Program-made: the position numbers and the translations under genes | Part shown: piece by piece, positions 2,175 through 36,111 of the stretch | How the letters are laid out: each line of letters begins with the position of its first letter | Numbering within the stretch: position 1 is the stretch's first letter | The notes under the pieces: generated by a model | Database searches by the model: none | Seen by the model: the letters and a program-made list of their open reading frames with translations, nothing else | What the model was told of the DNA's origin: nothing | NCBI GenBank assembly: GCA_020631955.1 | Contig: JACKGL010000002.1 | Span: 141,860 to 205,859 of the forward strand | From: Candidatus Nomurabacteria bacterium | Lineage (GTDB): Bacteria > Patescibacteriota > Minisyncoccia > Phycocordibacterales > UBA9973 | Length of the DNA stretch: 64,000 nucleotides | Reading direction: 5' to 3'

Positions 2175-3878
2175 TTATTCATCTAAGTCTACTTTTTCAG
2201 AAACTTCTTCTAAAGTAGTGATACCTTTTACTACTTTTATTATTCCATCTTCTTTCATACGTAGTATTCCTTGGGTGTTTGAAGCAGATAATATCTCTCT
2301 TTCTGAAGGGTTGGTAGGTATGATGTCTTCTATTTCTTTTGTATTTACTTTTATAGCTTCAAATATACCTATTCTTCCTTTGTATCCACTACCATTACAT
2401 TTTTTACAACCAGAACCTTTTTTCACCCCATAAGTATCTTTTATTTCTATATCATATGTATTTATATCTACACCCCTATCTTTTATTTCTTGCAATACTT
2501 TGTTTATTGTCCTTGTTTCTTCTTCTGTAGTATTAGAGCTTACACTGCAGTCAGCACAGACTTTTCTTACAAGTCTTTGTGCTAAAGCAAGAGTAAGGGC
2601 AGAAGGGATGGTTTTAGGATTTACTTCTAGATCTATAAGACGAGGGATAGCACCAGCGGCATTGTTGGTGTGCAGTGTAGAGAAAACAAGGTGTCCGGTT
2701 AAAGCTGCTTCTGTAGCAGTGTTGGCTGTTTCACTGTCTCTTATTTCTCCGACCATTATTACGTCTGGGTCTTGTCTTAAAGCAGAACGCAAACCTTCTA
2801 AGAAAGTATAACCTTGCTTAGAGTTGGTTTGAGTTTGGGTGATACCTTGTAGGTGGTATTCTATAGGGTCTTCTATCGTGATGATTTTTATCTCCGGGTC
2901 ATATATCTTAGACAAGAATGCATACAAGGTGGTTGTCTTTCCGCTACCTGTTGGCCCGGTGATGATGATCATACCGTTTGGTTTCTTTATTTCCTTTATT
3001 ATTATTTCGTATAGGTTTTTAGGAATACCTAAGTCCTCCAAAGATACTCTTATAGACTTTGGATCCAAAATACGCATAACAATAGTATCTCCATAAGCTC
3101 CTGGGATAATAGATGTTCTTATAGATATCTCTGTTCCTGTGTCGTCTAAAAATATACTAAACCTTCCATCTTGAGCCACCTGTCTTAACATGAGCTTAAG
3201 TCCTGAAAGAAGTTTTATTCTTGTATCTATGGAGTGGAATATGTTTGTAGGGAATCTATATATTTCCTCTAGGTTTCCATCTATTCTATATCTCATACGC
3301 ACATCTTCCTCGGCTGGTTCTATGTGAATATCGCTGGCCTCAAGCTCTATAGCGCCGGCTAATATTATTTCTAATATTTTTGATGTCTTGTGCTGCTTCT
3401 CATTTTTGAGCTCTTCTATCAAAGTTTTTACATCTTCTATACTTTCTATTTTTTCTCGAAGGTCTTTTATGGTTTCTGGGAGGATATCTATACCTCCAGA
3501 CTTTTGAACCTCAGCACGAGATATGTCTTCAAATCTTTCCCAAGCTTTTTCTAAAGAAGCTTTAGACGCCATATAAAGTATAGGAGTGAAGCCTTGGTTT
3601 TGAAGATTGTCTACAAAAGCTTTCACCTCACTTGTCTCAGGGCTTCTTACTGCTATATGGATCTTTGTACCTAGTATATTGAAAGGAGCAATACTGTTTT
3701 TCCTGGCTTCATCTTCTGTTATATGTCTTAGAGCGCTTGTTTCTATAGTAGTAGAAGACAGGTCTATATAAGGTAAGTTGTATTTTGACTGTGCTAAAAA
3801 CTGCACAAGCTCTTCTTCCTCGCGAGCTTTTAGATCGTCTACTTTTCTTTTTTGTTTTTCGTCATCGAAAACAACCAT
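2175..3878 (-). CDS. pilB: Type IV pilus assembly ATPase PilB (GspE family)
   Basis: 567 aa with Walker A GPTGSGKTTTL, VGEIRD, and the C-terminal tetracysteine CADC...CKKCNGSGYKGR. Confidence 0.85.
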   Translation of the reverse strand: MVVFDDEKQKRKVDDLKAREEEELVQFLAQSKYNLPYIDLSSTTIETSALRHITEDEARKNSIAPFNILGTKIHIAVRSPETSEVKAFVDNLQNQGFTPILYMASKASLEKAWERFEDISRAEVQKSGGIDILPETIKDLREKIESIEDVKTLIEELKNEKQHKTSKILEIILAGAIELEASDIHIEPAEEDVRMRYRIDGNLEEIYRFPTNIFHSIDTRIKLLSGLKLMLRQVAQDGRFSIFLDDTGTEISIRTSIIPGAYGDTIVMRILDPKSIRVSLEDLGIPKNLYEIIIKEIKKPNGMIIITGPTGSGKTTTLYAFLSKIYDPEIKIITIEDPIEYHLQGITQTQTNSKQGYTFLEGLRSALRQDPDVIMVGEIRDSETANTATEAALTGHLVFSTLHTNNAAGAIPRLIDLEVNPKTIPSALTLALAQRLVRKVCADCSVSSNTTEEETRTINKVLQEIKDRGVDINTYDIEIKDTYGVKKGSGCKKCNGSGYKGRIGIFEAIKVNTKEIEDIIPTNPSEREILSASNTQGILRMKEDGIIKVVKGITTLEEVSEKVDLDE

Positions 3879-15737: not shown

Positions 15738-15749
15738 CACGAACAAAAA

Positions 15750-15772
15750 ACACTCCCTGCGGAGTGTTTTTT
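15750..15772 (+). terminator. Rho-independent terminator after tRNA-Lys
   Basis: ACACTCC-CTGC-GGAGTGT followed by TTTTTT. Confidence 0.65.
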
Positions 15773-15776
15773 GCAT
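15760..15776 (+). repeat. 17-bp direct repeat, copy 1 (CGGAGTGTTTTTTGCAT)
   Basis: Identical to 15900..15916. This copy is the 3' half of the tRNA-Lys terminator. Confidence 0.8.
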
Positions 15777-15899
15777 CATGTCCGAGCCGGAGCAATGTTT
15801 TTGTTTTAAACGAAGCGAGAAGGCAAAAACTGCGAGGCGGGCCCGCGAGATTTTTTCGTCAGAAAAAATACTTGTGGGGACACAAGGACAAAATACCTA

Positions 15900-15916
15900 C
15901 GGAGTGTTTTTTGCAT
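15900..15916 (+). repeat. 17-bp direct repeat, copy 2 (CGGAGTGTTTTTTGCAT)
   Basis: Identical to 15760..15776 but lacks the 5' half of the hairpin. Confidence 0.8.
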
Positions 15917-17992: not shown

Positions 17993-19153
17993 TCACCTTG
18001 CTATATAAGCAAGCTTTGAGTTGGAAAATCTTTTGTCCCCAGTCACTTCTTTATATAAGCCTATATAGTGGGGGATAGTAACATTGTCTACATCTAACCC
18101 TTCTATCTCCAATAAATGAAGAGGGGTATCATTCATAAACTCATAACCGGAAATATCTCCCAGAAAAACATTTGAGAACAGATCGAGTTCCATGCGAACG
18201 TGGTCATGAGCAAAACAGAAACGTTTTTTGCGAAGCTCCTCGCCGACCTTTCTTTCCAGGAAAGAGGAGTAGGAGTCTTCACTTATAAGTCTTTGTTTTT
18301 CTGCCAGTCCTGCACTAGTCTGATATTTTTTCGTCCAGTAGAAACTGTTGATGTCATCCACTTTTCTCTTACGGACTCTTTCTGCTCCGAATTCTGTCTT
18401 GAGATAGGTTTGAGATATATCAACACTACGAGTGTTTTTAGGCAATCTCGCGATGTTAATATAATCCAACAACAGAAACTTTCTCTCATTTTCTATTGGA
18501 GGCTCATCAAATAAGTTCAAAATAGCACTGGTTGCTTTCTTGAGTTTGGTTTCGAAATCTGTGCGATTACTGAAGATCTCAAAATGTTCAAAGTCCATCC
18601 AGGCTCTTTGTATCTTATCTTCGAGCAGGCAGGCTTCTTCAGCCGTGCTCTCATAACGGGCTTCGTTGTTTGTGTTGTCGAAAAGTTCTGGTAAACCATA
18701 ACCTACAGTTACCATGTCTACAACAAGATCGTAAGCCTCTACACCAGCTACCACTCTGTTTAGGTTGTATTTATCCAGAAGTCTTAAGAACTCTTTTTCA
18801 CCGACATAAGCCTCCTCATCTAAAAAGCCTCTGTCATAGATAATGAGTATTCTTGCTTCCTTATCTTCTTGAAGCAGACTTTCAGCCGCTTTTTCCATAT
18901 GAGCATAGTCGAGCATTTGGAGCTCTATTACATACTCTTGGAAGGGGATCATGCCTACAGATGCTGGTGATATGCCACCTATTATTCTTGCCGTCGCGGC
19001 TTCGGAGGCGATGAGTACTTTTATACCCCTTTCTTCTGCTATCTCTTTTACATAAGGTATCATGCTGGATTTGCCACCCTTGGGTCCACCAGTAAGAACT
19101 ACTCTTTTAATATTATCATTGTTTATTTTCCTCATAAAAGATCGTTTGCCCAT
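17993..19153 (-). CDS. P-loop NTPase (AAA_28-like) fused to a CYTH domain
   Basis: P-loop GGPKGGKSS near the N-terminus and the CYTH ExExK signature ENERKFLL in the C-terminal half. The start is moved to an internal Met (MGKRSF); the track's N-terminal 59 aa look non-coding. Confidence 0.65.
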   Translation of the reverse strand: MGKRSFMRKINNDNIKRVVLTGGPKGGKSSMIPYVKEIAEERGIKVLIASEAATARIIGGISPASVGMIPFQEYVIELQMLDYAHMEKAAESLLQEDKEARILIIYDRGFLDEEAYVGEKEFLRLLDKYNLNRVVAGVEAYDLVVDMVTVGYGLPELFDNTNNEARYESTAEEACLLEDKIQRAWMDFEHFEIFSNRTDFETKLKKATSAILNLFDEPPIENERKFLLLDYINIARLPKNTRSVDISQTYLKTEFGAERVRKRKVDDINSFYWTKKYQTSAGLAEKQRLISEDSYSSFLERKVGEELRKKRFCFAHDHVRMELDLFSNVFLGDISGYEFMNDTPLHLLEIEGLDVDNVTIPHYIGLYKEVTGDKRFSNSKLAYIAR

Positions 19154-19244
19154 AATATAGCACAAAGAAGGCAGGCCTTCATCTTTTGGGTTTTCACAAG
19201 CAAGGTTGTACAAAATCTTTACATAGTATAAACTCGAGGCAGTT

Positions 19245-19724
19245 ATGGAAGGTAGATCAGTCTCAAAAAGTGAAAATACACCAGCTCCAGAGAAAAAGGA
19301 GCAGCTGACAAAAAAGGAAAAGGTATCCACAGCTTTTGATATTGCTTCTAAGTACGCAAAAAAGTATGTTCTTCCTAGAGACCGTTCTCCAGAGACTATG
19401 CCAGAGAGTAAAGAGTCTTTAAATACTATATGGATAACAGAGCTGAAGAAAGAGCTACTTAGTTATTATGATGGAATAGAAGACGAAGACAGAGGTCTAA
19501 ATATCATACAGTCTACTATACAAAAGATAGATAAAGAACTTGGTCTTCTGAACCCAGAAAGGGAAGAGAGTATAGGTTATAAAGAAAATGATTATATGTA
19601 TATGCTTGAAAACTTGTACGGAATAAAAAGAATAATAGAACAAATAAGTCTCGACCTAAACATCAACGAAAACAGTGACAATATAGATTTTGTTATTTAT
19701 AACCTAGAAAACAAGTTTAGATAA
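19245..19724 (+). CDS. Hypothetical protein
   Basis: 159-aa ORF, Lys/Glu-rich, no recognised motif. Confidence 0.4.
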   Translation: MEGRSVSKSENTPAPEKKEQLTKKEKVSTAFDIASKYAKKYVLPRDRSPETMPESKESLNTIWITELKKELLSYYDGIEDEDRGLNIIQSTIQKIDKELGLLNPEREESIGYKENDYMYMLENLYGIKRIIEQISLDLNINENSDNIDFVIYNLENKFR

Positions 19725-19981: not shown

Positions 19982-20560
19982 CTATCCTTGTGAAAGCCAC
20001 TTGATAGCTTCTTTTATTATCATACCTGTGTCGTCTATGTCTCTATCTATTTGTGTCAGTACGTCTCGTATCTCTCTTTTGTCATAACCCAAAGACTCTA
20101 AGGCTAAGTACACATCGTCATAACCTGATACGTTTTGACCATATTCTTTTTCTACCAAATTGGATAATTTATCACGAAGTTCTATGACTATCTTTTCTGC
20201 TGTTTTCTTACCTATACCTGAAAACTTTGTAAGATAAGCCGAGTCTGAGTTGGCTATAGCTTTTTTTAAGTTTTCTATTGGTTCTGAAGAGACTATACCT
20301 AAAGCACCTTTTGGTCCTACACCTGAGACTGTAAGCATCATTTCAAAGAGTGCCAGCTCTGATTTTTGCATAAATCCATATAGATCTATAGCGTCTTCCT
20401 TCACGGAGGTGTATGTATATATTTGTATAGAATCTCCAGCTTCACCCGTGTTTATAAGTGTATTTGCTCCTAGATATACCAAGTATCCCACACCACTCAC
20501 GTCTATGGTGATGGATTTTTCGTCTTTATCTATAATATTACCCCTGAGGAAACGTATCAT
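19982..20560 (-). CDS. ruvA: Holliday junction DNA helicase subunit RuvA
   Basis: MIRFLRGNII start, GVGY, helix-hairpin-helix segments (VSGVGPKGA, FSGIGKKTAEKI). Confidence 0.85.
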   Translation of the reverse strand: MIRFLRGNIIDKDEKSITIDVSGVGYLVYLGANTLINTGEAGDSIQIYTYTSVKEDAIDLYGFMQKSELALFEMMLTVSGVGPKGALGIVSSEPIENLKKAIANSDSAYLTKFSGIGKKTAEKIVIELRDKLSNLVEKEYGQNVSGYDDVYLALESLGYDKREIRDVLTQIDRDIDDTGMIIKEAIKWLSQG

Positions 20561-20736
20561 TACATCTAATAGTATATTAGAATAAGCCTGATTTACCAAT
20601 ACCATGTTGCAAAGTCACAATATTGTGTTATTATTGGCTCGCATGTACGGAAGTGTCTCTCCATACTTGTTTGGAAATAGAGGCTAGATAAAAGGACCAC
20701 CTCATTTTCTAAATATTAGATAAATAATCAAATTAT

Positions 20737-20994
20737 ATGCCAATAAAAGATTCTGCAAAGAAATCACTTAGAGTTTCAAAGAGAAAGAAGCTTGTAAACG
20801 ACAGAAGAAAGAAAACTCTTCGTGATACTTCAAAAAAAGTTGAGAAAGATATCAAAGCTGATAAAAAAATAGCAGCTCAATCTTTGTCTGCTGCATACAA
20901 AGCTATCGATAAAGCAGCAAAGAGAGGAATAATAAAGAAAAACACTGCTTCTAGAAAAAAATCTAAACTAGCAAGAATGGTAAACAAAGCATAA
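20737..20994 (+). CDS. rpsT: 30S ribosomal protein S20
   Basis: 85 aa, basic; MPIKDSAKKSLRVSKRK... AYKAIDKAAKRGIIKKNTASRKKSKL. Confidence 0.9.
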   Translation: MPIKDSAKKSLRVSKRKKLVNDRRKKTLRDTSKKVEKDIKADKKIAAQSLSAAYKAIDKAAKRGIIKKNTASRKKSKLARMVNKA

Positions 20995-20996
20995 AT

Positions 20997-21248
20997 ATGC
21001 TTTACGAATTTTACGGAACAGAATGTCCACATTGCGAAAGAATGCGCAATGTTGTCGAGTCTGTAGAGAAAAAACACAACGTCACTTTCGAAAGAAAGGA
21101 AGTGTGGCATGATGAAGATAACCTAGCTTTTCTAAAAGAATGCGACAAGAATGACGAATGTGGAGGTGTGCCTTTCTTCTATAATGATGAAACAGGTAAG
21201 TGGATCTGCGGTGAAGCTACAGAAGAAGAACTAGAATCAATAATATAA
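20997..21248 (+). CDS. Small thioredoxin-fold protein (CPHC active site)
   Basis: 83 aa with the CxxC motif CPHC near the N-terminus. Confidence 0.6.
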   Translation: MLYEFYGTECPHCERMRNVVESVEKKHNVTFERKEVWHDEDNLAFLKECDKNDECGGVPFFYNDETGKWICGEATEEELESII

Positions 21249-21279
21249 AACAAAATCCCGGGAGTCTCGGGGTTTTGTT

Positions 21280-21495
21280 TTATAGGTTGTCCATTATTTC
21301 TTGGTCTCTTTCTTCAGCAAGTCTCTGAACTCCTTCGACTTGGTTCTGGACGTAGTCTATCTTACCTGTGATTTTGTTTTGTATCTTTTGGAAATATGTT
21401 TCACCGCTGTTGTCTTTATAAAAATATATAAAAGCTGCTAGTGCAATGATGATAATCAAAAAGAATTTTGCAAAACCTGCATCGTTATTTTTCAT
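21280..21495 (-). CDS. Small membrane protein, unknown function
   Basis: 71 aa with one TM helix (FFLIIIIALAAFIYF). Confidence 0.4.
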   Translation of the reverse strand: MKNNDAGFAKFFLIIIIALAAFIYFYKDNSGETYFQKIQNKITGKIDYVQNQVEGVQRLAEERDQEIMDNL

Positions 21496-21523
21496 GGATA
21501 CATTATATCAAGTTATCTATGGA

Positions 21524-21561
21524 TAAGAAATTTTTTAATGTGCCCTCGCCAGGAATCGAAC
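21524..21561 (+). repeat. 38-bp perfect direct repeat, distal copy (displaced tRNA-Arg 3' end plus trailer)
   Basis: TAAGAAATTTTTTAATGTGCCCTCGCCAGGAATCGAAC, identical to 22185..22222. Confidence 0.9.
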
Positions 21562-21566
21562 ACACA

Positions 21567-21595
21567 TTGACTTAATGTATATTTTAGTGTATAAT
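21567..21595 (+). promoter_or_regulatory. Near-consensus sigma70 promoter (TTGACT-17-TATAAT) at the island edge
   Basis: TTGACT at 21567..21572, 17-nt spacer, TATAAT at 21590..21595. Confidence 0.6.
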
Positions 21596-21640
21596 ATAAA
21601 CAATATTTTTATTTTTTCTTTACATAAAAACTGATAAACA

Positions 21641-22144
21641 ATGGGATCTAATAAGTTAGTATTCAACTCCAGGGGTGATAGCGCTTGGGTGGAATTTGCA
21701 AACGGAAAAGAAACGGTATCTTGGGATACCAAGGAAGAGGCTCTTGAAGCCTTAAACGACCTGTTTAATAAGGACAGGATATCTGAGGATGAAGTTAAAA
21801 AGTTTTCAAAGGAAATATTCCTGAAAGAAACTTTTCCTAGTATTTTTGATTCTGTGAGAATTATTGGGGCAATAATTGCTCTCAGTCATTCTTCTCTTGA
21901 ACCGGATTACAAACAAATTGCTAATCCCACATTTGCTGTGTGCGACTGTGGGGCTAAGCCAATTCATGGATATTTCCATGATGATGATAATAACAAGGCA
22001 GGAATGCCTGTTATGTTCAAGAATCAAGCAAGAGACTTCACTAACTGGCTTTTGAAAAATGGTATTGTGTCAGAAGAAGGAAAAACATCTCTGTTCGTAC
22101 AGATAGATATGACAGAACTTCCCGAACACCCACAGGTAAACTGA
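21641..22144 (+). CDS. Island-borne hypothetical protein (167 aa)
   Basis: The only long ORF between the direct repeats. It has no recognised motif and is G+C-richer than its flanks. Confidence 0.55.
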   Translation: MGSNKLVFNSRGDSAWVEFANGKETVSWDTKEEALEALNDLFNKDRISEDEVKKFSKEIFLKETFPSIFDSVRIIGAIIALSHSSLEPDYKQIANPTFAVCDCGAKPIHGYFHDDDNNKAGMPVMFKNQARDFTNWLLKNGIVSEEGKTSLFVQIDMTELPEHPQVN

Positions 22145-22151
22145 TATTTTT

Positions 22152-22179
22152 CAACCGCTCTTTTGAGCGGTTGTTTTTA
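22152..22179 (+). terminator. Rho-independent terminator
   Basis: CAACCGCTC-TTTT-GAGCGGTTG followed by TTTTT. Confidence 0.7.
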
Positions 22180-22184
22180 TCTTC

Positions 22185-22222
22185 TAAGAAATTTTTTAAT
22201 GTGCCCTCGCCAGGAATCGAAC
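22185..22222 (+). repeat. 38-bp perfect direct repeat, tRNA-proximal copy
   Basis: Covers the last 21 nt of tRNA-Arg(GCG) (22202..22222) plus 17 nt of trailer. Confidence 0.9.
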
Positions 22223-22273
22223 CTGGACCGACAGTTCCGCAAACTGACGTTCTATCCATTAAACTACGAGGAC
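22202..22273 (-). tRNA. tRNA-Arg (anticodon GCG)
   Basis: Manual fold: acceptor GTCCTCG/CGAGGGC (one G.U), D arm GTTT-AATGGATA-GAAC as in the other Arg tRNA, anticodon loop TTGCGGA (one U.U at the top of the stem), T arm CCAGG-TTCGATT-CCTGG. 72 nt. Confidence 0.8.
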
Positions 22274-22286
22274 ATGTAAGGTGATA

Positions 22287-22628
22287 CTACCTTACCTTGG
22301 CTCCTGGTGCAATATCTTCTTCTGCTACCAAAAATATAGGTCTATCTTCTCCTACAGCCATAAGCATACCTTCGCTATCTAAGCCCCTTATTTTTCTCGG
22401 AGCTAAGTTTGTGCAGAAAAGCATTTGTTTACCCACGAGCTTTTCTGGCTCTGTGTACCACTCTCTTATAGCTGAAAGTATTTGTCTATGTTTTTCTTCT
22501 CCACAATCAAGCTCAAATCTGATCAGCTTATCAGAGTCTGGTACAGCTTCTGCTACTAGCACTTTGCAGAGTTTCATTTCAAGTTTTGTAAAATCTTCGT
22601 AAGAAGCATTTATTTTTTCTTCACTCAT
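22287..22628 (-). CDS. tRNA-binding domain protein (CsaA/EMAP-like)
   Basis: 113 aa. KLEMKLCKVLVAEAVPDSDKLIRFELDCGEE ... LAPRKIRGLDSEGML is typical of the OB-fold tRNA-binding domain. Confidence 0.75.
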   Translation of the reverse strand: MSEEKINASYEDFTKLEMKLCKVLVAEAVPDSDKLIRFELDCGEEKHRQILSAIREWYTEPEKLVGKQMLFCTNLAPRKIRGLDSEGMLMAVGEDRPIFLVAEEDIAPGAKVR

Positions 22629-22629
22629 A

Positions 22630-23031
22630 TTATTTTTTATCTAAATACCTTTGTAATATATGCATCGCTGCTATATGGTCTATTTCTTTTTTAAAATCTT
22701 TCTTCACCTGTCTTTGTGTATTTGTATTTCCTTTTGTCATCTCTCTGAGTCTTGATTCGTGAGAAGTCATGGATTCATCTTGATAGTCTACTTCGTACCC
22801 AGACTCTTCTAGGAAACTTTTATATCCTTCTATCAAAGATACTAGTTTGGTGTCTTGGTCTTTGGTGTATCCTATGACCACAGTTTTTACCCTTTGTTCT
22901 TTTATATAGAGCATCAGAGATTCTTTTTGATTTGCTGAAAACACTTTACCTGGGAAGGCTATCTTCTGGTTTTCATCTGAGTATGCAGTACCTATTCTTT
23001 TTGTACCTATATCAAGAGCTATTATCTTCAC
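22630..23031 (-). CDS. ruvX: Putative pre-16S rRNA nuclease / Holliday junction resolvase-like YqgF (RuvX)
   Basis: MKIIALDIGTKRIGTAYSD N-terminus. Confidence 0.85.
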   Translation of the reverse strand: MKIIALDIGTKRIGTAYSDENQKIAFPGKVFSANQKESLMLYIKEQRVKTVVIGYTKDQDTKLVSLIEGYKSFLEESGYEVDYQDESMTSHESRLREMTKGNTNTQRQVKKDFKKEIDHIAAMHILQRYLDKK

Positions 23032-23148
23032 AAATAGAGATTATCATATTTGTACTTTTACTACAATTTTGCTAATATGCTCGTACCAGTATTTCTGGTG
23101 AAAAGAATAAAGTATTTGCTAAAAGATACTTTGAAAAATTAAATAAAT

Positions 23149-23235
23149 GGAGGCGTGGCTGAGTGGTTGAAGGCACTTGTCTTGAAAACAAGAGACTGGG
23201 CAACTGGTCCGTGAGTTCGAATCTCACCGCCTCCG
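23149..23235 (+). tRNA. tRNA-Ser (anticodon UGA)
   Basis: Class II tRNA, 87 nt: acceptor GGAGGCG/CGCCTCC, anticodon loop CTTGAAA, long variable arm, T arm GTGAG-TTCGAAT-CTCAC. Confidence 0.9.
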
Positions 23236-23246
23236 CACACGATGGA

Positions 23247-23278
23247 AATACCCAATGCGAAAGCGTTGGGTATTTTTA
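23247..23278 (+). terminator. Rho-independent terminator after tRNA-Ser
   Basis: ATACCCAA...TTGGGTAT followed by TTTTT. Confidence 0.6.
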
Positions 23279-23368
23279 TTGTGCAGAGGGTTGCCGCGAA
23301 TCCTATAAGTTTATGCCCACCTCTGTAAAAACAAAGAGCAAAGCGATTATGTTTTTAAGAGAAGGGTA

Positions 23369-23385
23369 AATCTCGCTCCCTCCGC
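23369..23385 (+). repeat. Degenerate copy of the tRNA-Ser 3' end
   Basis: AATCTCGCTCCCTCCGC versus tRNA AATCTCACCGCCTCCGC: 14 of 17 identical by hand alignment. Confidence 0.6.
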
Positions 23386-23396
23386 CAAGACAATTT

Positions 23397-23411
23397 AGTA
23401 TCGGACGACCC
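23397..23411 (+). repeat. AGTATCGGA(G)NGACCC motif, copy 1
   Basis: AGTATCGGACGACCC, preceded by CCGCCAAGACAATTT as in copy 3. Confidence 0.6.
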
Positions 23412-23471
23412 GAGTGTCTATATTTTGCAACACTTCTGGAGACCTCGATATTCGTAAAAAGTTCGAACCTG

Positions 23472-23486
23472 TGAGGGATTCGAACT
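23472..23486 (-). repeat. Inverted tRNA T-arm-like fragment
   Basis: The minus strand reads GTTCGAATCCCTCAC, close to the tRNA-Ser GTTCGAATCTCAC. No cloverleaf can be built around it. Confidence 0.4.
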
Positions 23487-23560
23487 TTCTGTATTTTTGG
23501 GTATAGGAGTGAGGGGTGACCCACGTGCTTCGAAGAGCTTACACCCCTCATTAAGAATAA

Positions 23561-23576
23561 AGTATCGGAGCGACCC
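23561..23576 (+). repeat. AGTATCGGAGNGACCC motif, copy 2
   Basis: AGTATCGGAGCGACCC. Confidence 0.6.
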
Positions 23577-23633
23577 AGATACTTTATAAAACAGAGACCA
23601 CCTGAAAAGGTGGTTTTTGCTATACTACTAAAC

Positions 23634-24506
23634 ATGAACACGGAAACACTAAAAGATTTTATAGAAACTCATTGGGGTTTTGAAGAGGTTGTCTTGGAAC
23701 TCCTGCAAAATAAGGGCGATAGGTTCGTGTATAAAATCATTTCTAAAGAAGGTAATTTTGTTATTAAAATATCTGATACAGAAAAAACGGTAGAACAATT
23801 CAAGAAAGATTTGTATATGCTTGAATATGGGCCACGCATCGGATTTGACTATGTTCCAAAAATTATAGAGACAAAAGACGGGAGCTCGTATTTACATTTT
23901 CAAAATAGATTTCTTTTCATCATGGCTTTTCTTTCGGGGGAAAGCCCTGAAAACAACCCTCTGGATTGGCATAAAATTGGAGCGCTTACAGCCAGGCTCC
24001 ACAATATTAAAAATTATAAATACACTATCGATTTTAACCCATTGGATAAAAAAGGCGGAGTTGATGAGTTTTCTCAAGCCCTCTCATTTGGGAAGGAGTA
24101 TAGGGAGCTTTTTGCGACACTGCCAGATTTTTCAAACCTACCAAAAACTCCTATCCATACCGATATTGGTCTTCATAATTCTATAAAAAAAGAAAATGGG
24201 GAGATTATTTTCATTGACTGGGATGACGCTGGGATTGGGTTGCGTATTTTAGATATTGGCTTTCCGTTACTATCTCAGTTTGTTGATGAGAATAATATTA
24301 TACATACACAAAACGCCAAAGCCTTTTATTCAAGTTATTTTGAGAATGTACACATTCCTGTTTCTGAGAATGAAAAGAGGATGATATTTGATGCATCGTT
24401 ATTCTTTGCTCTCATTTATTTACGCTATAGTGATGTCGATAAAACATGGCAGCGAATTCAATGGGCTTTGTCTCATCGTGAAGAAATAGAATCAGTGCTG
24501 TTCTAG
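23634..24506 (+). CDS. Aminoglycoside/choline-kinase-type phosphotransferase (APH family)
   Basis: HTDIGLHN (HxDxxxxN catalytic loop) and FIDWDDAG (metal-binding Asp). Start at MNTETLKDF. Confidence 0.7.
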   Translation: MNTETLKDFIETHWGFEEVVLELLQNKGDRFVYKIISKEGNFVIKISDTEKTVEQFKKDLYMLEYGPRIGFDYVPKIIETKDGSSYLHFQNRFLFIMAFLSGESPENNPLDWHKIGALTARLHNIKNYKYTIDFNPLDKKGGVDEFSQALSFGKEYRELFATLPDFSNLPKTPIHTDIGLHNSIKKENGEIIFIDWDDAGIGLRILDIGFPLLSQFVDENNIIHTQNAKAFYSSYFENVHIPVSENEKRMIFDASLFFALIYLRYSDVDKTWQRIQWALSHREEIESVLF

Positions 24507-24601
24507 TACCCCGACCCATACCCCTCAATCCATATTTAAAATATACCACTAGAACGCCTTATGGTGTCTGTAGGTGTGGGTACTTAACCCACGCGGCCCG
24601 C
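24507..24601 (+). repeat. 95-nt cassette-end element, copy 1
   Basis: Runs from the stop codon to GGCCCGC. 57 of 95 positions match 25353..25447 in an ungapped hand alignment, with conserved blocks CCCCGACCCA, CTTAYGGTGTCT, GGTACTKAACCCA and GGCCCGC. Confidence 0.65.
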
Positions 24602-24612
24602 CAAGAAAACAA

Positions 24613-24628
24613 AGTATCGGAGTGACCC
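24613..24628 (+). repeat. AGTATCGGAGNGACCC motif, copy 3
   Basis: AGTATCGGAGTGACCC. A partial fourth copy, GGACGACCCGA, lies at 24646..24656. Confidence 0.6.
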
Positions 24629-24692
24629 GGAGGATTATGATTGTAGGACGACCCGATTAGTCAAGTTTGCATATTTAAGTTAAAATACTGAT

Positions 24693-25352
24693 ATGGAAAG
24701 TTTTCGTCAAAGCCCAATAACAACTGAAAATGAAACTGAAAAAAAGCCACTAAAAGAGAGTGTTGATTTTGTGTTTGAACAGCATACTGAATTAGCGTCT
24801 ATTGGTACCAAGGATCAGTACGTCCAATATATCGCGACTATTTTCCCAGATAGCAAATTCAAGGAAGTCGTATATCACAATTCAGATGCTGAATTTAAGA
24901 ATGAGGGGTTCAAACCAATGAAGCCTAATTTTGATACGCTTAACAGCATTGAGGGAGTCTATAATTTCAGCTCGAATCGTACCTTTGCTCAGCGATATGG
25001 CATTAATACTTATGCTGTCGTCTTGGACATCCATAATGCTATTGAAGATACTTCTTCGGGGGAATATGTTGACGACATAGACAGACCTTTATCTGAAGCA
25101 TTATTTAAAATAGGGAAACAAACCAAAGCGAATCCCTTCGCACCAGAATACGATGAAAATCTGAAAAATACCGATGCGGTGATTAATCATATTTCAGGAG
25201 AAGATTACATAGAAAAACATCCAAGAACTGGAAGGGAGTGGGGTGTTCCTCCTCAAACAGTAGTCAGCGTATTCCACGAGAATCAGATACACATTCTTGG
25301 TTCATCATCTGATGTGCAAAAGTTTCGTGAATTTGTTGAAAGAGAAAAATAG
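24693..25352 (+). CDS. Cassette-borne hypothetical protein (219 aa)
   Basis: Long ORF with no signal peptide. The C-terminal ...NQIHILGSSSDVQKFREFV reminds me of domains in polyvalent phage/plasmid proteins; this is an unverified impression. Confidence 0.5.
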   Translation: MESFRQSPITTENETEKKPLKESVDFVFEQHTELASIGTKDQYVQYIATIFPDSKFKEVVYHNSDAEFKNEGFKPMKPNFDTLNSIEGVYNFSSNRTFAQRYGINTYAVVLDIHNAIEDTSSGEYVDDIDRPLSEALFKIGKQTKANPFAPEYDENLKNTDAVINHISGEDYIEKHPRTGREWGVPPQTVVSVFHENQIHILGSSSDVQKFREFVEREK

Positions 25353-25447
25353 ATCCCCGACCCACACACCTTATTTTAACTCCTAAAAGTCTCCTGAAAT
25401 ACCCTTACGGTGTCTTACCTCCCTGGTACTGAACCCATATGGCCCGC
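25353..25447 (+). repeat. 95-nt cassette-end element, copy 2 (array terminus)
   Basis: Exactly the same stop-codon-to-GGCCCGC length as copy 1. It is followed by ATAAAAATCCC instead of CAAGAAAAC. Confidence 0.65.
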
Positions 25448-25449
25448 AT

Positions 25450-25472
25450 AAAAATCCCGAAAGGGATTTTTA
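25450..25472 (+). terminator. Rho-independent terminator
   Basis: AAAATCCC-GAAA-GGGATTTTT. Confidence 0.65.
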
Positions 25473-25529
25473 TAATTGTATTGTTATAAACCAGCACTTT
25501 GTTTTTATTTTTCATGCTAGAATATAAGT

Positions 25530-25991
25530 ATGGAACCCATATCCTGGCAAGAGTTGGAATATACTCCAAAAGAAAAGAAACCCGATTTTTATTGGGCTTT
25601 GGGTATTATTGCTGTTGCTTTGGGTGTGTCAGCTTTTGTTTATAGTAATCCGATACTCGGCATACTTATATTGGTAGGAGCTTTTTCTATAGCTATCATC
25701 TCGCTTCGCAAACCTCGCATGATGACATATGAGATATCTGAAAGAGGTATATCTATAAATGGAGAATTTTTTTCTTATAGAAGCATAGAAGCTTTTTATT
25801 TTGATAGAAAATATTATGGTCATTTGGTGCTCAGATTAGGAAAGGGAGCTTTTGCTACAGAAACCATAAACTTACCAGAAGGTGTAGATATAGATGAACT
25901 ACATAACTTTTTTGAAGAAGTTATGCCAGAAAAAGAAACAGAAATGATAGAAACGCCCTTTCATCTACTATTTGAAAGGATAGGTATCTAA
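25530..25991 (+). CDS. Membrane protein, unknown function
   Basis: 153 aa with two TM helices followed by a soluble domain. Confidence 0.5.
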   Translation: MEPISWQELEYTPKEKKPDFYWALGIIAVALGVSAFVYSNPILGILILVGAFSIAIISLRKPRMMTYEISERGISINGEFFSYRSIEAFYFDRKYYGHLVLRLGKGAFATETINLPEGVDIDELHNFFEEVMPEKETEMIETPFHLLFERIGI

Positions 25992-32026: not shown

Positions 32027-32258
32027 GTGTCTTTATTGTACCAAGTTAGAACCTATTTCCAAAGTCGAACCTAATCGCACATCCGTGCGCTAAAGCGCCT
32101 CTGTGCGAAGCACAGAGCTTTTCCAAAGGAAAAGGACGGATATGCGAAATGCAAATGCGGAACGCGAGCGGAAAGAATTTTGCGGAGGACTGGGGGTCTG
32201 GGGGAAAGGGCTCCGCAAAATTTCCGCTTCGTGTGCTTCGCTGTTTTTTGGCTGGGCG
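32027..32258 (+). repeat. IR-A, left copy (232 bp)
   Basis: Checked base by base: the reverse complement of 33980..34211 is identical over all 232 nt. Confidence 0.95.
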
Positions 32259-33979: not shown

Positions 33980-34211
33980 CGCCCAGCCAAAAAACAGCGA
34001 AGCACACGAAGCGGAAATTTTGCGGAGCCCTTTCCCCCAGACCCCCAGTCCTCCGCAAAATTCTTTCCGCTCGCGTTCCGCATTTGCATTTCGCATATCC
34101 GTCCTTTTCCTTTGGAAAAGCTCTGTGCTTCGCACAGAGGCGCTTTAGCGCACGGATGTGCGATTAGGTTCGACTTTGGAAATAGGTTCTAACTTGGTAC
34201 AATAAAGACAC
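33980..34211 (-). repeat. IR-A, right copy (232 bp, inverted)
   Basis: Perfect inverted copy of 32027..32258. Confidence 0.95.
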
Positions 34212-34238
34212 CAGTATTGAACTTAGCGGTTGAGAACC
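34185..34238. other. attP-like quasi-palindromic site centred on the IR-A/IR-B junction
   Basis: GGTTCTAAC (34185..34193) and GTTGAGAACC (34229..34238) are symmetric about CAC at 34209..34211, with further partial arm symmetry. Confidence 0.55.
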
Positions 34239-34355
34239 AACCAAGGAGTGGGCGGCACAAAGTGCCGCCCACGCTGTTTCCCCTGATTTTCCAAACGCAT
34301 TTGGAGCCGCGCCTGCGGCGCGGCGCACTGTTTTTTCGCCAAGAAGCAGGTTCGA
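34209..34355 (-). repeat. IR-B, left copy (147 bp, inverted; includes a duplicate of the recombinase 3' coding end)
   Basis: Checked base by base: the reverse complement equals 35932..36078. It overlaps IR-A by 3 nt. Confidence 0.95.
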
Positions 34356-34437: not shown

Positions 34438-34530
34438 TGTTGTAACCAATTATTAGTTAGTCAGCAGAAAGGGCTATTCCAGATATCTTGACTAACGTTG
34501 AGGTTACAACACTGGAGTGGCCCTTTCTGC
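34438..34530 (+). promoter_or_regulatory. Structured recombinase leader with interleaved perfect complementarities
   Basis: Pairings: A 34438..34447 with 34502..34511 (10 bp); B 34456..34463 with 34489..34496 (8 bp); C 34464..34474 with 34520..34530 (11 bp); D 34478..34482 with 34512..34516 (5 bp). It ends 15 nt before the ATG. Confidence 0.5.
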
Positions 34531-34545
34531 TTGAAGAAAAAATAT

Positions 34546-36111
34546 ATGCAAAAATTCTTTTTGTATGCTCGCAAGAGCACCGATGTCGAGGATAAACAAG
34601 TGTTGAGTATCAAAGCTCAATTAACAGAGTTGCGCGCTTTCGCCAAAAATGAAAAGTTGGAAATTGTTAATGAGTTTGTAGAAAAGCGTACCGCTAAAGT
34701 TCCAGGTCGCCCCATTTTTGGCGAAATGATGAGACGAATTGAGAAAGGTGAAGTAAGCGGAATATTATCATGGCACCCCGATCGTCTGGCGCGCAATTCT
34801 GTGGACGGCGGACAGATAATCTACTTTCTCGACATCGGAAACCTTGCGAGCCTCAAATTCCCTAGCCACTGGTTTGAAAACACGCCACAGGGCAAATTCT
34901 CGCTGTCCATGGCATTTGTCCAAAGCAAATACTATGTAGATTCTCTTTCCGAGAACACGAAACGCGGACTTCGCCAAAAAGTGAGAATGGGTATATTTCC
35001 AAGCCAAGCGCCAGTGGGATATTTGAATGATAGCCGAACAAAAACGATTGTAGTTGAAAAGAAAAAATCTCGCATTGTGCGTTTGGCTTTCGAGCGATAT
35101 GTAAAAGGCAATCAAAGGTTAGAAGATATTGCAGAATTTTTGGCGAAGTCCGGTATTACAACCCGAACCGGAAAGAGAATCTCCAAAACCAAAGCGTCTT
35201 TTATCCTATCAAATCCGTTTTATATCGGCTTATTCAAATACAGTGGTGAACTCCACGAGGGGAAGCACGAGCCAATCATTTCAAAGAAACTTTTTGATGA
35301 AGCACAGGAAATGCTAAAACTTCGTGGTCAACCCGAAAGAAAACCACAAAATGAACCTCAACCATTTTGCGGTCTCATTTCCTGTGCTTCTTGTGGAATG
35401 ATGATAACTGGCGAACACAAATTCAAACGGCAGAAGAATGGGAATGTCCACGAGTACACATATTATCGCTGTACGAAAAAACGAAAAGATTTTATCTGCA
35501 AAGAATCTGCCGTTAGAGAGGAAGAAATGAATCGCCAGTTATCATCCCTCATTCAAAAAGTTTCTTTGCCTAAAGACTGGGCGGAGGAATTATTGAAAAT
35601 GGCGGAAAATGAACACAAAAACTCCGCCCAGTCTTTAACTGCTTGTGTGAAAGAGAAAGAAACGAAAATATCTGAAATTTCACAAAAGCTAGAGCGACTT
35701 CTTAACGGATATTTAGACCAAATTGTTGACGAGCAAGATTATCGAAATCAAAAAGCAAAATTATTGTCCGAGAAGAAGTCGCTTCAAGAAGAAATTTCAG
35801 ATTTTTCACACAAGCAGAATGATTGGCTCGAACCGATGAAAGAATGGATAAAAGACGCACAATCCTTGGACAAAATTGCTTCTGATGATGACCTTTTTGC
35901 AAAAAAGGTCAAAGCCAAAGAAATCTTTGGCTCGAACCTGCTTCTTGGCGAAAAAACAGTGCGCCGCGCCGCAGGCGCGGCTCCAAATGCGTTTGGAAAA
36001 TCAGGGGAAACAGCGTGGGCGGCACTTTGTGCCGCCCACTCCTTGGTTGGTTCTCAACCGCTAAGTTCAATACTGGTGCGCAGGAGAGGACTTGAACCTC
36101 CACACCCGTAA
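34546..36111 (+). CDS. Large serine recombinase
   Basis: Resolvase-type N-terminus YARKSTDVEDKQVLSIKAQ (catalytic Ser) and HPDRLARN, a recombinase domain, the zinc ribbon CGLISCASCG...YYRC, and a coiled coil. The last approximately 60 codons lie in IR-B and the tRNA. Confidence 0.85.
   Translation: MQKFFLYARKSTDVEDKQVLSIKAQLTELRAFAKNEKLEIVNEFVEKRTAKVPGRPIFGEMMRRIEKGEVSGILSWHPDRLARNSVDGGQIIYFLDIGNLASLKFPSHWFENTPQGKFSLSMAFVQSKYYVDSLSENTKRGLRQKVRMGIFPSQAPVGYLNDSRTKTIVVEKKKSRIVRLAFERYVKGNQRLEDIAEFLAKSGITTRTGKRISKTKASFILSNPFYIGLFKYSGELHEGKHEPIISKKLFDEAQEMLKLRGQPERKPQNEPQPFCGLISCASCGMMITGEHKFKRQKNGNVHEYTYYRCTKKRKDFICKESAVREEEMNRQLSSLIQKVSLPKDWAEELLKMAENEHKNSAQSLTACVKEKETKISEISQKLERLLNGYLDQIVDEQDYRNQKAKLLSEKKSLQEEISDFSHKQNDWLEPMKEWIKDAQSLDKIASDDDLFAKKVKAKEIFGSNLLLGEKTVRRAAGAAPNAFGKSGETAWAALCAAHSLVGSQPLSSILVRRRGLEPPHP
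35932..36078 (+). repeat. IR-B, right copy (147 bp)
   Basis: About 57% G+C by hand count (84 of 147). It contains perfect hairpins GCCGCGCC-GCA-GGCGCGGC and GTGGGCGGCAC-TTT-GTGCCGCCCAC. Confidence 0.95.

Follow-up and report, generated by a model that had tools for sequence, protein, structure and literature searches.

A repeat-bounded 661-bp single-gene unit at the 3' end of tRNA-Arg(GCG) in a Nomurabacteria genome, possibly a small islet integrated in trans

Within a 64-kb stretch of a "Candidatus Nomurabacteria" genome (64,000 nucleotides; GenBank assembly GCA_020631955.1, contig JACKGL010000002.1, positions 141,860 to 205,859; hereafter the window), a 661-bp unit carrying one gene with its own promoter and terminator lies against the 3' end of an intact tRNA-Arg(GCG) gene, bounded by two perfect 38-bp direct copies of that end. 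The unit is absent from the corresponding locus of related genomes and present in every conspecific contig recovered. The best reading of this feature is as a very small, fixed islet resembling a cis-mobilizable element (CIME), which makes it a variant of a well-known type of genomic islet. As to its origin, the account that we tentatively prefer is that of a lineage-specific, non-autonomous single-gene islet that was integrated site-specifically as a small circle by a recombinase acting in trans.

The window contains the repeat (TAAGAAATTTTTTAATGTGCCCTCGCCAGGAATCGAAC) two times only, at 21524-21561 and at 22185-22222 (both minus strand), with 100% identity between the copies. No third copy is present in the window, even with up to 3 mismatches allowed, and the chance expectation for a 38-bp match is 0 (100 shuffles). 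The right, attL-like copy, delimited by repeat search, ARAGORN, and Rfam, comprises the T-loop, T-stem, acceptor 3' strand, and discriminator of a functional tRNA (21 to 22 nucleotides [nt]) together with 16 to 17 nt of trailer. That tRNA-Arg(GCG), the target gene, is on the minus strand; ARAGORN places it at 22201-22273 and Rfam at 22202-22273 (RF00005, 61.3 bits, model positions 1 to 71, full model), and according to both it is complete and abuts the island. The left, attR-like copy, recognized by its identity to 22185-22222, consists of the 16- to 17-nt trailer (21524-21540) and the final 21 to 22 nt of tRNA-Arg (up to 21561); it lacks a tRNA body, and ARAGORN calls no tRNA there.

The edge of the repeat that is internal to the tRNA falls at G53/T54 in the T-arm, with identity beginning in the T-loop. 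A T-loop crossover is reportedly one of the classical sublocations used by tRNA-targeting integrases, as Williams is said to have set out in 2002. The 38-mer contains no dyad symmetry of the Cre/Xer core type (fold, -0.9 kcal/mol; z-score, 0.75), and Rfam detects only tRNAs between 20500 and 25000. There are no matches to the 38-mer in the Joint Genome Institute (JGI) metagenomes and none to a 25-nt core of it in viral contigs, and the sequence is thus not dispersed in the window or in these collections. An earlier note, made from the letters of this DNA alone, had described a perfect pair of repeats, the second formed by the end of the tRNA and its trailer, and had named a generic repeat as the alternative; the pair and its assignment to the tRNA hold, and the alternative is not borne out in the sequences searched.

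The two copies enclose 623 bp, and the unit including one copy measures 661 bp. All of the 623 bp can be assigned, to 79 nt of promoter and leader, a 504-nt open reading frame (ORF), and 40 nt of terminator, with no pseudogene debris and no sequence left over that could be an integrase pseudogene. The promoter is of the sigma-70 type (TTGACT-17-TATAAT, 21567-21595, plus strand) and matches 11 of 12 consensus positions; it is the top promoter-like site in 20500-23500 and lies 5 nt inward of the left repeat, upstream of the 167-aa ORF (NCBI H6790_00855; 21641-22144, plus strand, from the ORF list). The ORF is followed by an intrinsic terminator (22152-22183, plus strand, recognized by its hairpin and T-run), with a hairpin at 22152-22173 of 9 pairs (6 of them G-C) and a 4-nt loop, followed by TTTTTATCTT. 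This terminator is situated 18 to 19 nt past the 3' end of tRNA-Arg, which is on the other strand, and the T-run is found on the plus strand only, indicating that it is a canonical terminator for the ORF and not for the tRNA. No recombinase is encoded between the repeats, the sole ORF being without recombinase similarity in Pfam, PHROGs, PDB, and Foldseek searches, and there are no terminal inverted repeats at the ends of the 623-bp insert. The contents that the earlier note had listed, a near-consensus promoter, one 167-aa ORF, a terminator, and no integrase, are therefore all confirmed.

Outside the repeat-bounded unit, a 71-aa ORF (21280-21495, minus strand, from the ORF list) starts 28 nt past the left repeat copy. 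It has a predicted N-terminal hydrophobic helix and an extended -10 element (TGATATAAT) just upstream of its ATG, and in the reconstructed empty site it would stand directly after tRNA-Arg on the same strand. A 12-nt inverted repeat (ACATTATATCAA at 21500-21511 and TTGACTTAATGT at 21567-21578, 10 of 12 positions complementary) brackets the left copy; one arm coincides with the -10 region of the 71-aa gene, the other with the -35 region of the 167-aa gene, which places the partial tRNA copy between two divergent promoters.

The 167-aa gene is real, under selection, and not an orphan, as it had earlier been called. A word-indexed protein search returned only the ORF itself, and an exhaustive HMMER scan of 1.84 billion representatives yielded 53 related cluster representatives at E < 1e-3, of which 19 were at E < 1e-10. 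Family members are 24 to 40% identical, and nearly all are 130 to 200 aa in length, with 160 to 180 aa being the characteristic size. Their alignment contains conserved Cys101, Cys103, and His109 (CxC...H) and Leu151, as well as a near-invariant C-terminal Asn, and hints at an internal two-fold repeat. An AlphaFold2 model from 7 family members is usable (pLDDT, 78.5; the single-sequence model is poor, at 49.6) and has two similar small alpha/beta domains (beta-beta-(beta)-alpha-alpha) separated by a disordered linker. The homology and structure searches that the earlier note had called for thus produced a family and no named fold: there was no Foldseek match against PDB and BFVD at E < 1e-3, no match in Pfam (the ORF and 31 members), PHROGs, PADLOC, or a PDB profile search, and no relative in viral contigs. 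The protein is predicted to be cytoplasmic; its family is uncharacterized, and nothing ties it to recombinases or nucleases.

The genomic context of the family was inspected at 8 independent loci. At 4 of them, the family gene and a tRNA gene are convergent, with 45 to 130 nt separating the family gene from the tRNA 3' end; the tRNAs are tRNA-Arg(GCG) in the window, tRNA-Asn(GTT) in L061, tRNA-His(GTG) in L067, and tRNA-Ser in L073 (homologue P0015). All four genes have their own strong promoter and terminator and no recombinase alongside. At a generous background of 11% (7 tRNAs per ~62 genes), convergence at 4 of 8 loci corresponds to a rough binomial P of < 0.01, and the only other gene in the window that converges equally closely on a tRNA end is that of a large serine recombinase (LSR). 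No tRNA adjoins the family gene in L063, L064/L065, L068-70, and L071. A 38- to 51-nt repeat around another homologue, P0057 (L057/L058), which contains GGTTCGATT, was initially taken for a tRNA-derived att site and was discarded as such, since it proved to be a leaderless sigma-70 promoter (TTGGTA-17-TAGAAT) present in duplicate, serving two genes on the minus strand. L073 also contains a tRNA-like sequence (3740-3815), about 100 nt past its tRNA-Ser, in which the acceptor stem pairs (GCCAGTG with CATTGGC) and the T-arm is canonical; the middle is aberrant, and ARAGORN makes no call there.

The locus was compared with 20 Nomurabacteria and Paceibacteria loci in which the neighboring tRNA-binding protein is 58 to 73% identical to that of the window. 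The ancestral order runs from Fpg, RuvA, S20, and a thioredoxin-like gene to tRNA-Arg(GCG) and a 153-aa protein and, further on, to tRNA-Ser, RuvX, the tRNA-binding protein, and PilM; the part from Fpg to tRNA-Arg(GCG) is common to those relatives that cover the stretch. No tblastn match to the 167-aa ORF, or to the 71-aa ORF, was found in the 20 loci, and the 167-aa ORF is consequently not a core gene at this position, in keeping with the island status given to it earlier. A relative from a JGI metagenome (L072) likewise has the ancestral order and no island.

L034 and L039 have only about 90 and 100 bp, respectively, separating the thioredoxin-like gene from the tRNA-Arg 3' end and are effectively empty sites; the corresponding distance is about 175 bp in L031 and 953 bp in the window. 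In L036, L032, and L038, the gap widens to about 600, 700, and 1150 bp, respectively, and contains differing small species-specific ORFs. The 3' flank of tRNA-Arg is a hot spot for lineage-specific DNA. In at least 5 relatives, exact direct copies (16 to 22 nt) of the genome's own tRNA-Arg 3' end lie 150 to 200 bp downstream (L030, L038, L040, L048, and L032, which has two in tandem). These copies start in or just after the T-loop and are followed by differing sequence, mostly with its own terminator hairpin, a pattern that, as read from the sequences, is that expected from successive integrations at one tRNA. No integrase-like ORF is apparent beside tRNA-Arg(GCG) in the relatives, as judged from reading the translations and not from Pfam.

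The relatives carry other conserved structure at this site. From 0 to 230 nt downstream of tRNA-Arg(GCG), L030 to L048 present the tRNA 3' end, a terminator, an inverted T-arm copy, and a structured spacer of 60 to 130 nt (for example, L032 1626-1800, L033 1682-1775, and L040 1239-1460), and in several of them the direct copy of the tRNA 3' end comes after the spacer. The spacers are 70 to 80% identical between species, and their hairpin keeps its pairing despite sequence change (RNAalifold, 29 pairs, 11 with compensatory changes, in 5 sequences); Rfam returns nothing real on these modules, which may represent an unrecognized noncoding RNA, a recombination site, or a MITE-like module (miniature inverted-repeat transposable element). 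Gene order beyond the tRNA also varies: the window block 22287-25991 (153-aa gene, tRNA-Ser, RuvX, and tRNA-binding gene) is inverted relative to L031, L034, and L039, one breakpoint lies immediately 5' of tRNA-Arg(GCG), and the orientation of tRNA-Arg and tRNA-Ser differs among relatives.

The arrangement in the window is real and not an assembly artifact, since independent assemblies span both repeat junctions (two "Candidatus Nomurabacteria" metagenome-assembled genomes at NCBI and several ENA and Logan contigs). Exact-protein look-ups with the 167-aa ORF and both neighbors retrieved 29 conspecific loci from at least 15 samples. Many Logan contigs end inside the repeat, which we considered and rejected as evidence of heterogeneity because a 38-bp repeat exceeds the assembly k of 31. 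Two indels occur elsewhere in this population: 258 bp at 19062-19319, flanked by an 8-nt repeat (AAGGTATC), are missing in L001, L011, and L013, changing a 445-aa and a 159-aa ORF, and 38 bp at 23110-23147, just upstream of tRNA-Ser, are missing in L010, L020, and L023.

Under our preferred account, conservative site-specific recombination would have placed the unit at the tRNA-Arg(GCG) 3' end, joining a 38-bp att sequence on a small circular DNA to the T-loop-to-trailer segment of the tRNA gene, with catalysis in trans by a recombinase encoded elsewhere; that this enzyme is probably of the tyrosine type, as the earlier note had proposed, is only an inference. Integration would have rebuilt a complete tRNA beside the island (attL, 22185-22222) and displaced the original 3' end and trailer by 661 bp (attR, 21524-21561), where the displaced copy would still front the 71-aa gene that formerly came next after the tRNA. 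The cargo would be a self-contained expression cassette (strong promoter, 167-aa protein, and terminator), and the end state a fixed, CIME-like unit that kept both putative att copies and has no mobility genes. The intact tRNA, the distal partial copy, the repeat edge in the T-loop, and the absence from relatives all argue for the attL/attR interpretation that the earlier note had put forward, which is reasonable and in part supported. The tRNA-end copies in relatives, the recurrence of the family at tRNA ends with no integrase alongside, and the compactness of the unit likewise favor the preferred account.

Several results weigh against this account. All 29 conspecific contigs are collinear with the window at 99 to 100% identity and contain the island, and neither an empty site nor a circle junction was found among them; the unit appears fixed in the sampled population, and there is no sign of present mobility in the fetched contigs. 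Neither the 38-mer pair nor the 167-aa ORF recurs in the rest of the window, in viral contigs, or in the JGI metagenomes. Among the tRNA-adjacent family loci compared, a significant direct repeat occurs only in the window: L061 and L073 have none relative to shuffled sequence, and L067 has none in the 106 nt of upstream sequence that could be tested. The 79 and 40 nt of noncoding island sequence leave no space for lambda-type arm sites, and the G+C content of the island (0.33 to 0.39) is host-like, that of the flanks being 0.32 to 0.40. A Pfam scan of the ~40 larger ORFs of the window, in a genome of 643 kb, detected no tyrosine recombinase, the sole recombinase being the LSR at 34498-36111 (Resolvase, Recombinase, and Zn_ribbon_recom domains). 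Finally, the 16- to 17-nt trailer within the repeat resembles the AT-rich tRNA trailer of the island-less L072, suggesting either that the incoming element carried a host-like trailer or that the duplication arose in some other way; past the trailer, neither window copy aligns to the sequence downstream in L072 better than shuffled sequence does. The host-like trailer and G+C content, the lack of polymorphism, and the preexisting two-copy architecture in relatives keep an origin other than site-specific integration under consideration.

The earlier note had posed the choice as one between a remnant and a unit mobilized in trans, which is still the right pair of options. A remnant would derive from a larger, integrase-bearing island or prophage at tRNA-Arg that was pared down to one useful gene and both att copies, which we consider unlikely but a serious contender. 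The attL/attR evidence applies to it equally. Deletions are common in the reduced genomes of the Candidate Phyla Radiation (CPR), and this host does lose DNA between short repeats, as in the 258-bp indel at 19062-19319. The unit is, moreover, fixed and compositionally ameliorated with no sign of mobility, and the ORF-less modules of 130 to 190 bp between tRNA-end copies in relatives could themselves be remnants. Against such decay, there is no pseudogene debris, and with the promoter 5 nt from one repeat and the terminator 11 nt from the other, it would require two very neat deletions. At four different tRNAs, the family is represented by a lone gene without any remnant of an integrase beside it, and independent decay to the same endpoint is unlikely. 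The repeat, perfect over 38 bp that include unconstrained trailer, also argues against great age. A unit that was small from the outset is therefore favored over a deletion remnant on the basis of its compactness, its perfect repeat, and the occurrence of the same single gene at four tRNAs.

Distinctly unlikely, in our assessment, is an origin with no circular element at all, in which an ancestral second copy of the tRNA end was already in place, the interior was exchanged for the ORF cassette by homologous or illegitimate recombination, and the two copies were homogenized by gene conversion. Its starting point would be an ancestral layout of the form "a - terminator - inverted a - structured spacer - a", with exchange following, for example, the uptake of DNA, and the window does carry type IV pilus/competence-like genes (PilM and T2SSE). 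Many relatives do have a conserved structured spacer set between partial copies of the tRNA end, both direct and inverted; these spacers are 70 to 80% identical where the neighboring protein is only 58 to 73% identical to that of the window, and their folding is backed by the 11 compensatory pairs among 29. The trailer of the repeat looks host-derived, and the G+C content of the island equals that of the host. The direct copies in relatives, however, are 16 to 22 nt long and share at most about 3 nt of trailer, not 38 nt in all; the inverted copy and the structured spacer have left no trace in the window; and gene conversion over 38 bp at a spacing of 661 bp is possible but ad hoc.

Placement by an LSR such as the one 12 kb away, with the long identity representing a replacement tRNA 3' end carried by the element, is very unlikely. 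An analogy for such a carried end, not needed for crossover, is the staphylococcal cassette chromosome SCCmec, which carries the end of orfX. The only recombinase found in the window is an LSR, whose ORF overlaps tRNA-Leu(GAG) and at whose locus a repeat spans the tRNA-Leu trailer and 5 nt of the tRNA, and an island with an APH-like kinase gene at tRNA-Ser, which is absent from L023 with a 4-nt overlap, fits an LSR-like short-core pattern. LSR attL and attR sites normally share only the 2-nt crossover dinucleotide, such that 38 bp of perfect identity extending into the trailer is neither needed nor explained; the repeats at the LSR locus are inverted and not direct, and the Arg repeat has no sequence similarity to the Leu or Ser junctions.

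That the unit is an autonomous micro-element, with the 167-aa protein as its mobility or targeting factor and the 38-bp repeat as a long target-site duplication from staggered cuts of the Cas1 type, is barely credible: its positive support is position (a gene next to attL and converging on the tRNA, where integrase genes usually lie, at four tRNAs), and although target duplication would account for host trailer inside the repeat and the conserved CxC...H could bind metal, the protein resembles no nuclease, recombinase, or transposase in sequence or fold, half of the family loci have no nearby tRNA or repeat, the other tRNA-adjacent members tested have no duplication, and the island lacks terminal inverted repeats and is seen only once in the window.

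Among known systems, genomic islands are typically found at tRNA genes and bounded by perfect direct repeats, which are produced by site-specific integration and can be used for excision, with typical repeats of 16 to 20 bp (PMC2704930). With tRNA-associated islets and decayed islands that retain a residual attR, the present unit has in common its location at a tRNA 3' end, the regenerated tRNA, a perfect repeat, its absence from relatives, and an accessory cargo. Typical island repeats lie mostly within the tRNA, and such islands usually have an integrase or its pseudogene and often a deviant composition, whereas here the repeat is 38 bp with 16 to 17 nt of trailer, there is no trace of an integrase, and the G+C content is that of the host.

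The ICEberg 2.0 database describes CIMEs as elements flanked by attL and attR whose integration and transfer genes were lost or never present (PMC6323972). With both putative att copies kept and no mobility gene, the islet corresponds to such an element. Like the CIMEs of Streptococcus and other Firmicutes, it combines intact attL/attR-like direct repeats with the lack of integration and transfer genes. The first CIMEs to be described were kilobases long, were related to an identifiable integrative and conjugative element (ICE) with the same att site, and were mobilized by accretion. The islet differs in being 0.66 kb long with one gene, in a CPR host with no conjugation genes in view, and no ICE or integrative and mobilizable element using the same att site was found in the window or at related loci.

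Integron cassettes are also single-gene units of ~0.5 to 1 kb, moved as circles to a fixed chromosomal site by a recombinase encoded elsewhere. They are promoterless, however, with an attC site that is an imperfect palindrome, an attI site beside intI, and a shared core of 7 bp, whereas the islet has its own promoter (11 of 12 positions) and terminator, its only palindrome is the 9-bp terminator stem, the gene it targets is that of a tRNA, and the ~40 window ORFs scanned include no intI. Integrative mobile elements exploiting Xer (IMEX; XerCD/dif) similarly have no integrase, depend on a host recombinase, and are bounded by duplicated short sites (~28 bp), but the target here is a tRNA 3' end and not dif, and the 38-mer has no dif-like dyad around a 6- to 8-bp spacer. 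Transposons, insertion sequences, and MITEs have terminal inverted repeats and target-site duplications of ~2 to 14 bp, in contrast to the islet, which has no terminal inverted repeats and a duplication of 38 bp. Full-text literature searches, directed in part at elements of this sort in the CPR, found no description of such cassettes.

Other duplicated or island-like structures occur at tRNA genes in the window. The 3' flank of tRNA-Lys (15744-15916) holds a small module of this kind: part of the terminator palindrome behind this tRNA (15744-15773) recurs 140 bp farther on, as a 17-nt direct repeat at 15760-15776 and 15900-15916. Another island without an integrase (23237-24597, with the APH-like kinase gene at 23610-24506) begins exactly at the 3' end of tRNA-Ser(TGA) (23149-23236); in L023, where it is missing, tRNA-Ser is joined straight to 24598, with the 4-nt overlap being CCGC. 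Copies of the tRNA-Ser end plus trailer (CCTCCGC CAAGA..AGTATCGGA..GACCC) are located at 23379-23414 and 24594-24635; a third, incomplete one lies at 23556-23580.

At the LSR locus, an inverted repeat of ~100 bp (34209-34308 and 35980-36078) brackets the gene and is perfect over 45 nt (34209-34253 and 36034-36078); its right arm abuts the 3' end of tRNA-Leu(GAG), with a 5-nt overlap. A further inverted repeat of 118 nt (32027-32144 and 34094-34211) flanks a 521-aa ORF upstream of the LSR. The inverted repeats at this locus suggest an invertible or nested element.

A broader possibility, which we regard as rather unlikely, is that Paceibacteria/Nomurabacteria possess a class of promoter-bearing single-gene cassettes of ~0.6 to 0.8 kb that are delivered in trans to the 3' ends of various tRNAs (Arg, Asn, His, and Ser). 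If there is such a class, the 167-aa family would be either a recurrent cargo or a factor needed in cis or in trans, the 3' ends of tRNAs would serve as cassette acquisition sites comparable to an integron platform, with the T-loop-to-acceptor segment as att, and the ORF-less structured modules of relatives would be noncoding members of the same system.

The CPR, or Patescibacteria, have tiny genomes in which gene acquisition is little documented. If the unit did enter as a 0.66-kb circle with the help of a recombinase acting in trans, few integrative units on record would be smaller, and its case would show that single accessory genes can be shuttled to tRNA ends in the CPR without a mobility gene of their own; if it is only a fixed remnant, it would be an ordinary scar of past integration and mainly a matter for annotation. 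The most interesting by-product of the analysis is that an uncharacterized CPR protein family is associated with the 3' ends of tRNA genes of several kinds. The occurrence of this one family at four tRNA genes provides a concrete handle on which recombinase and which att sequence would be involved.

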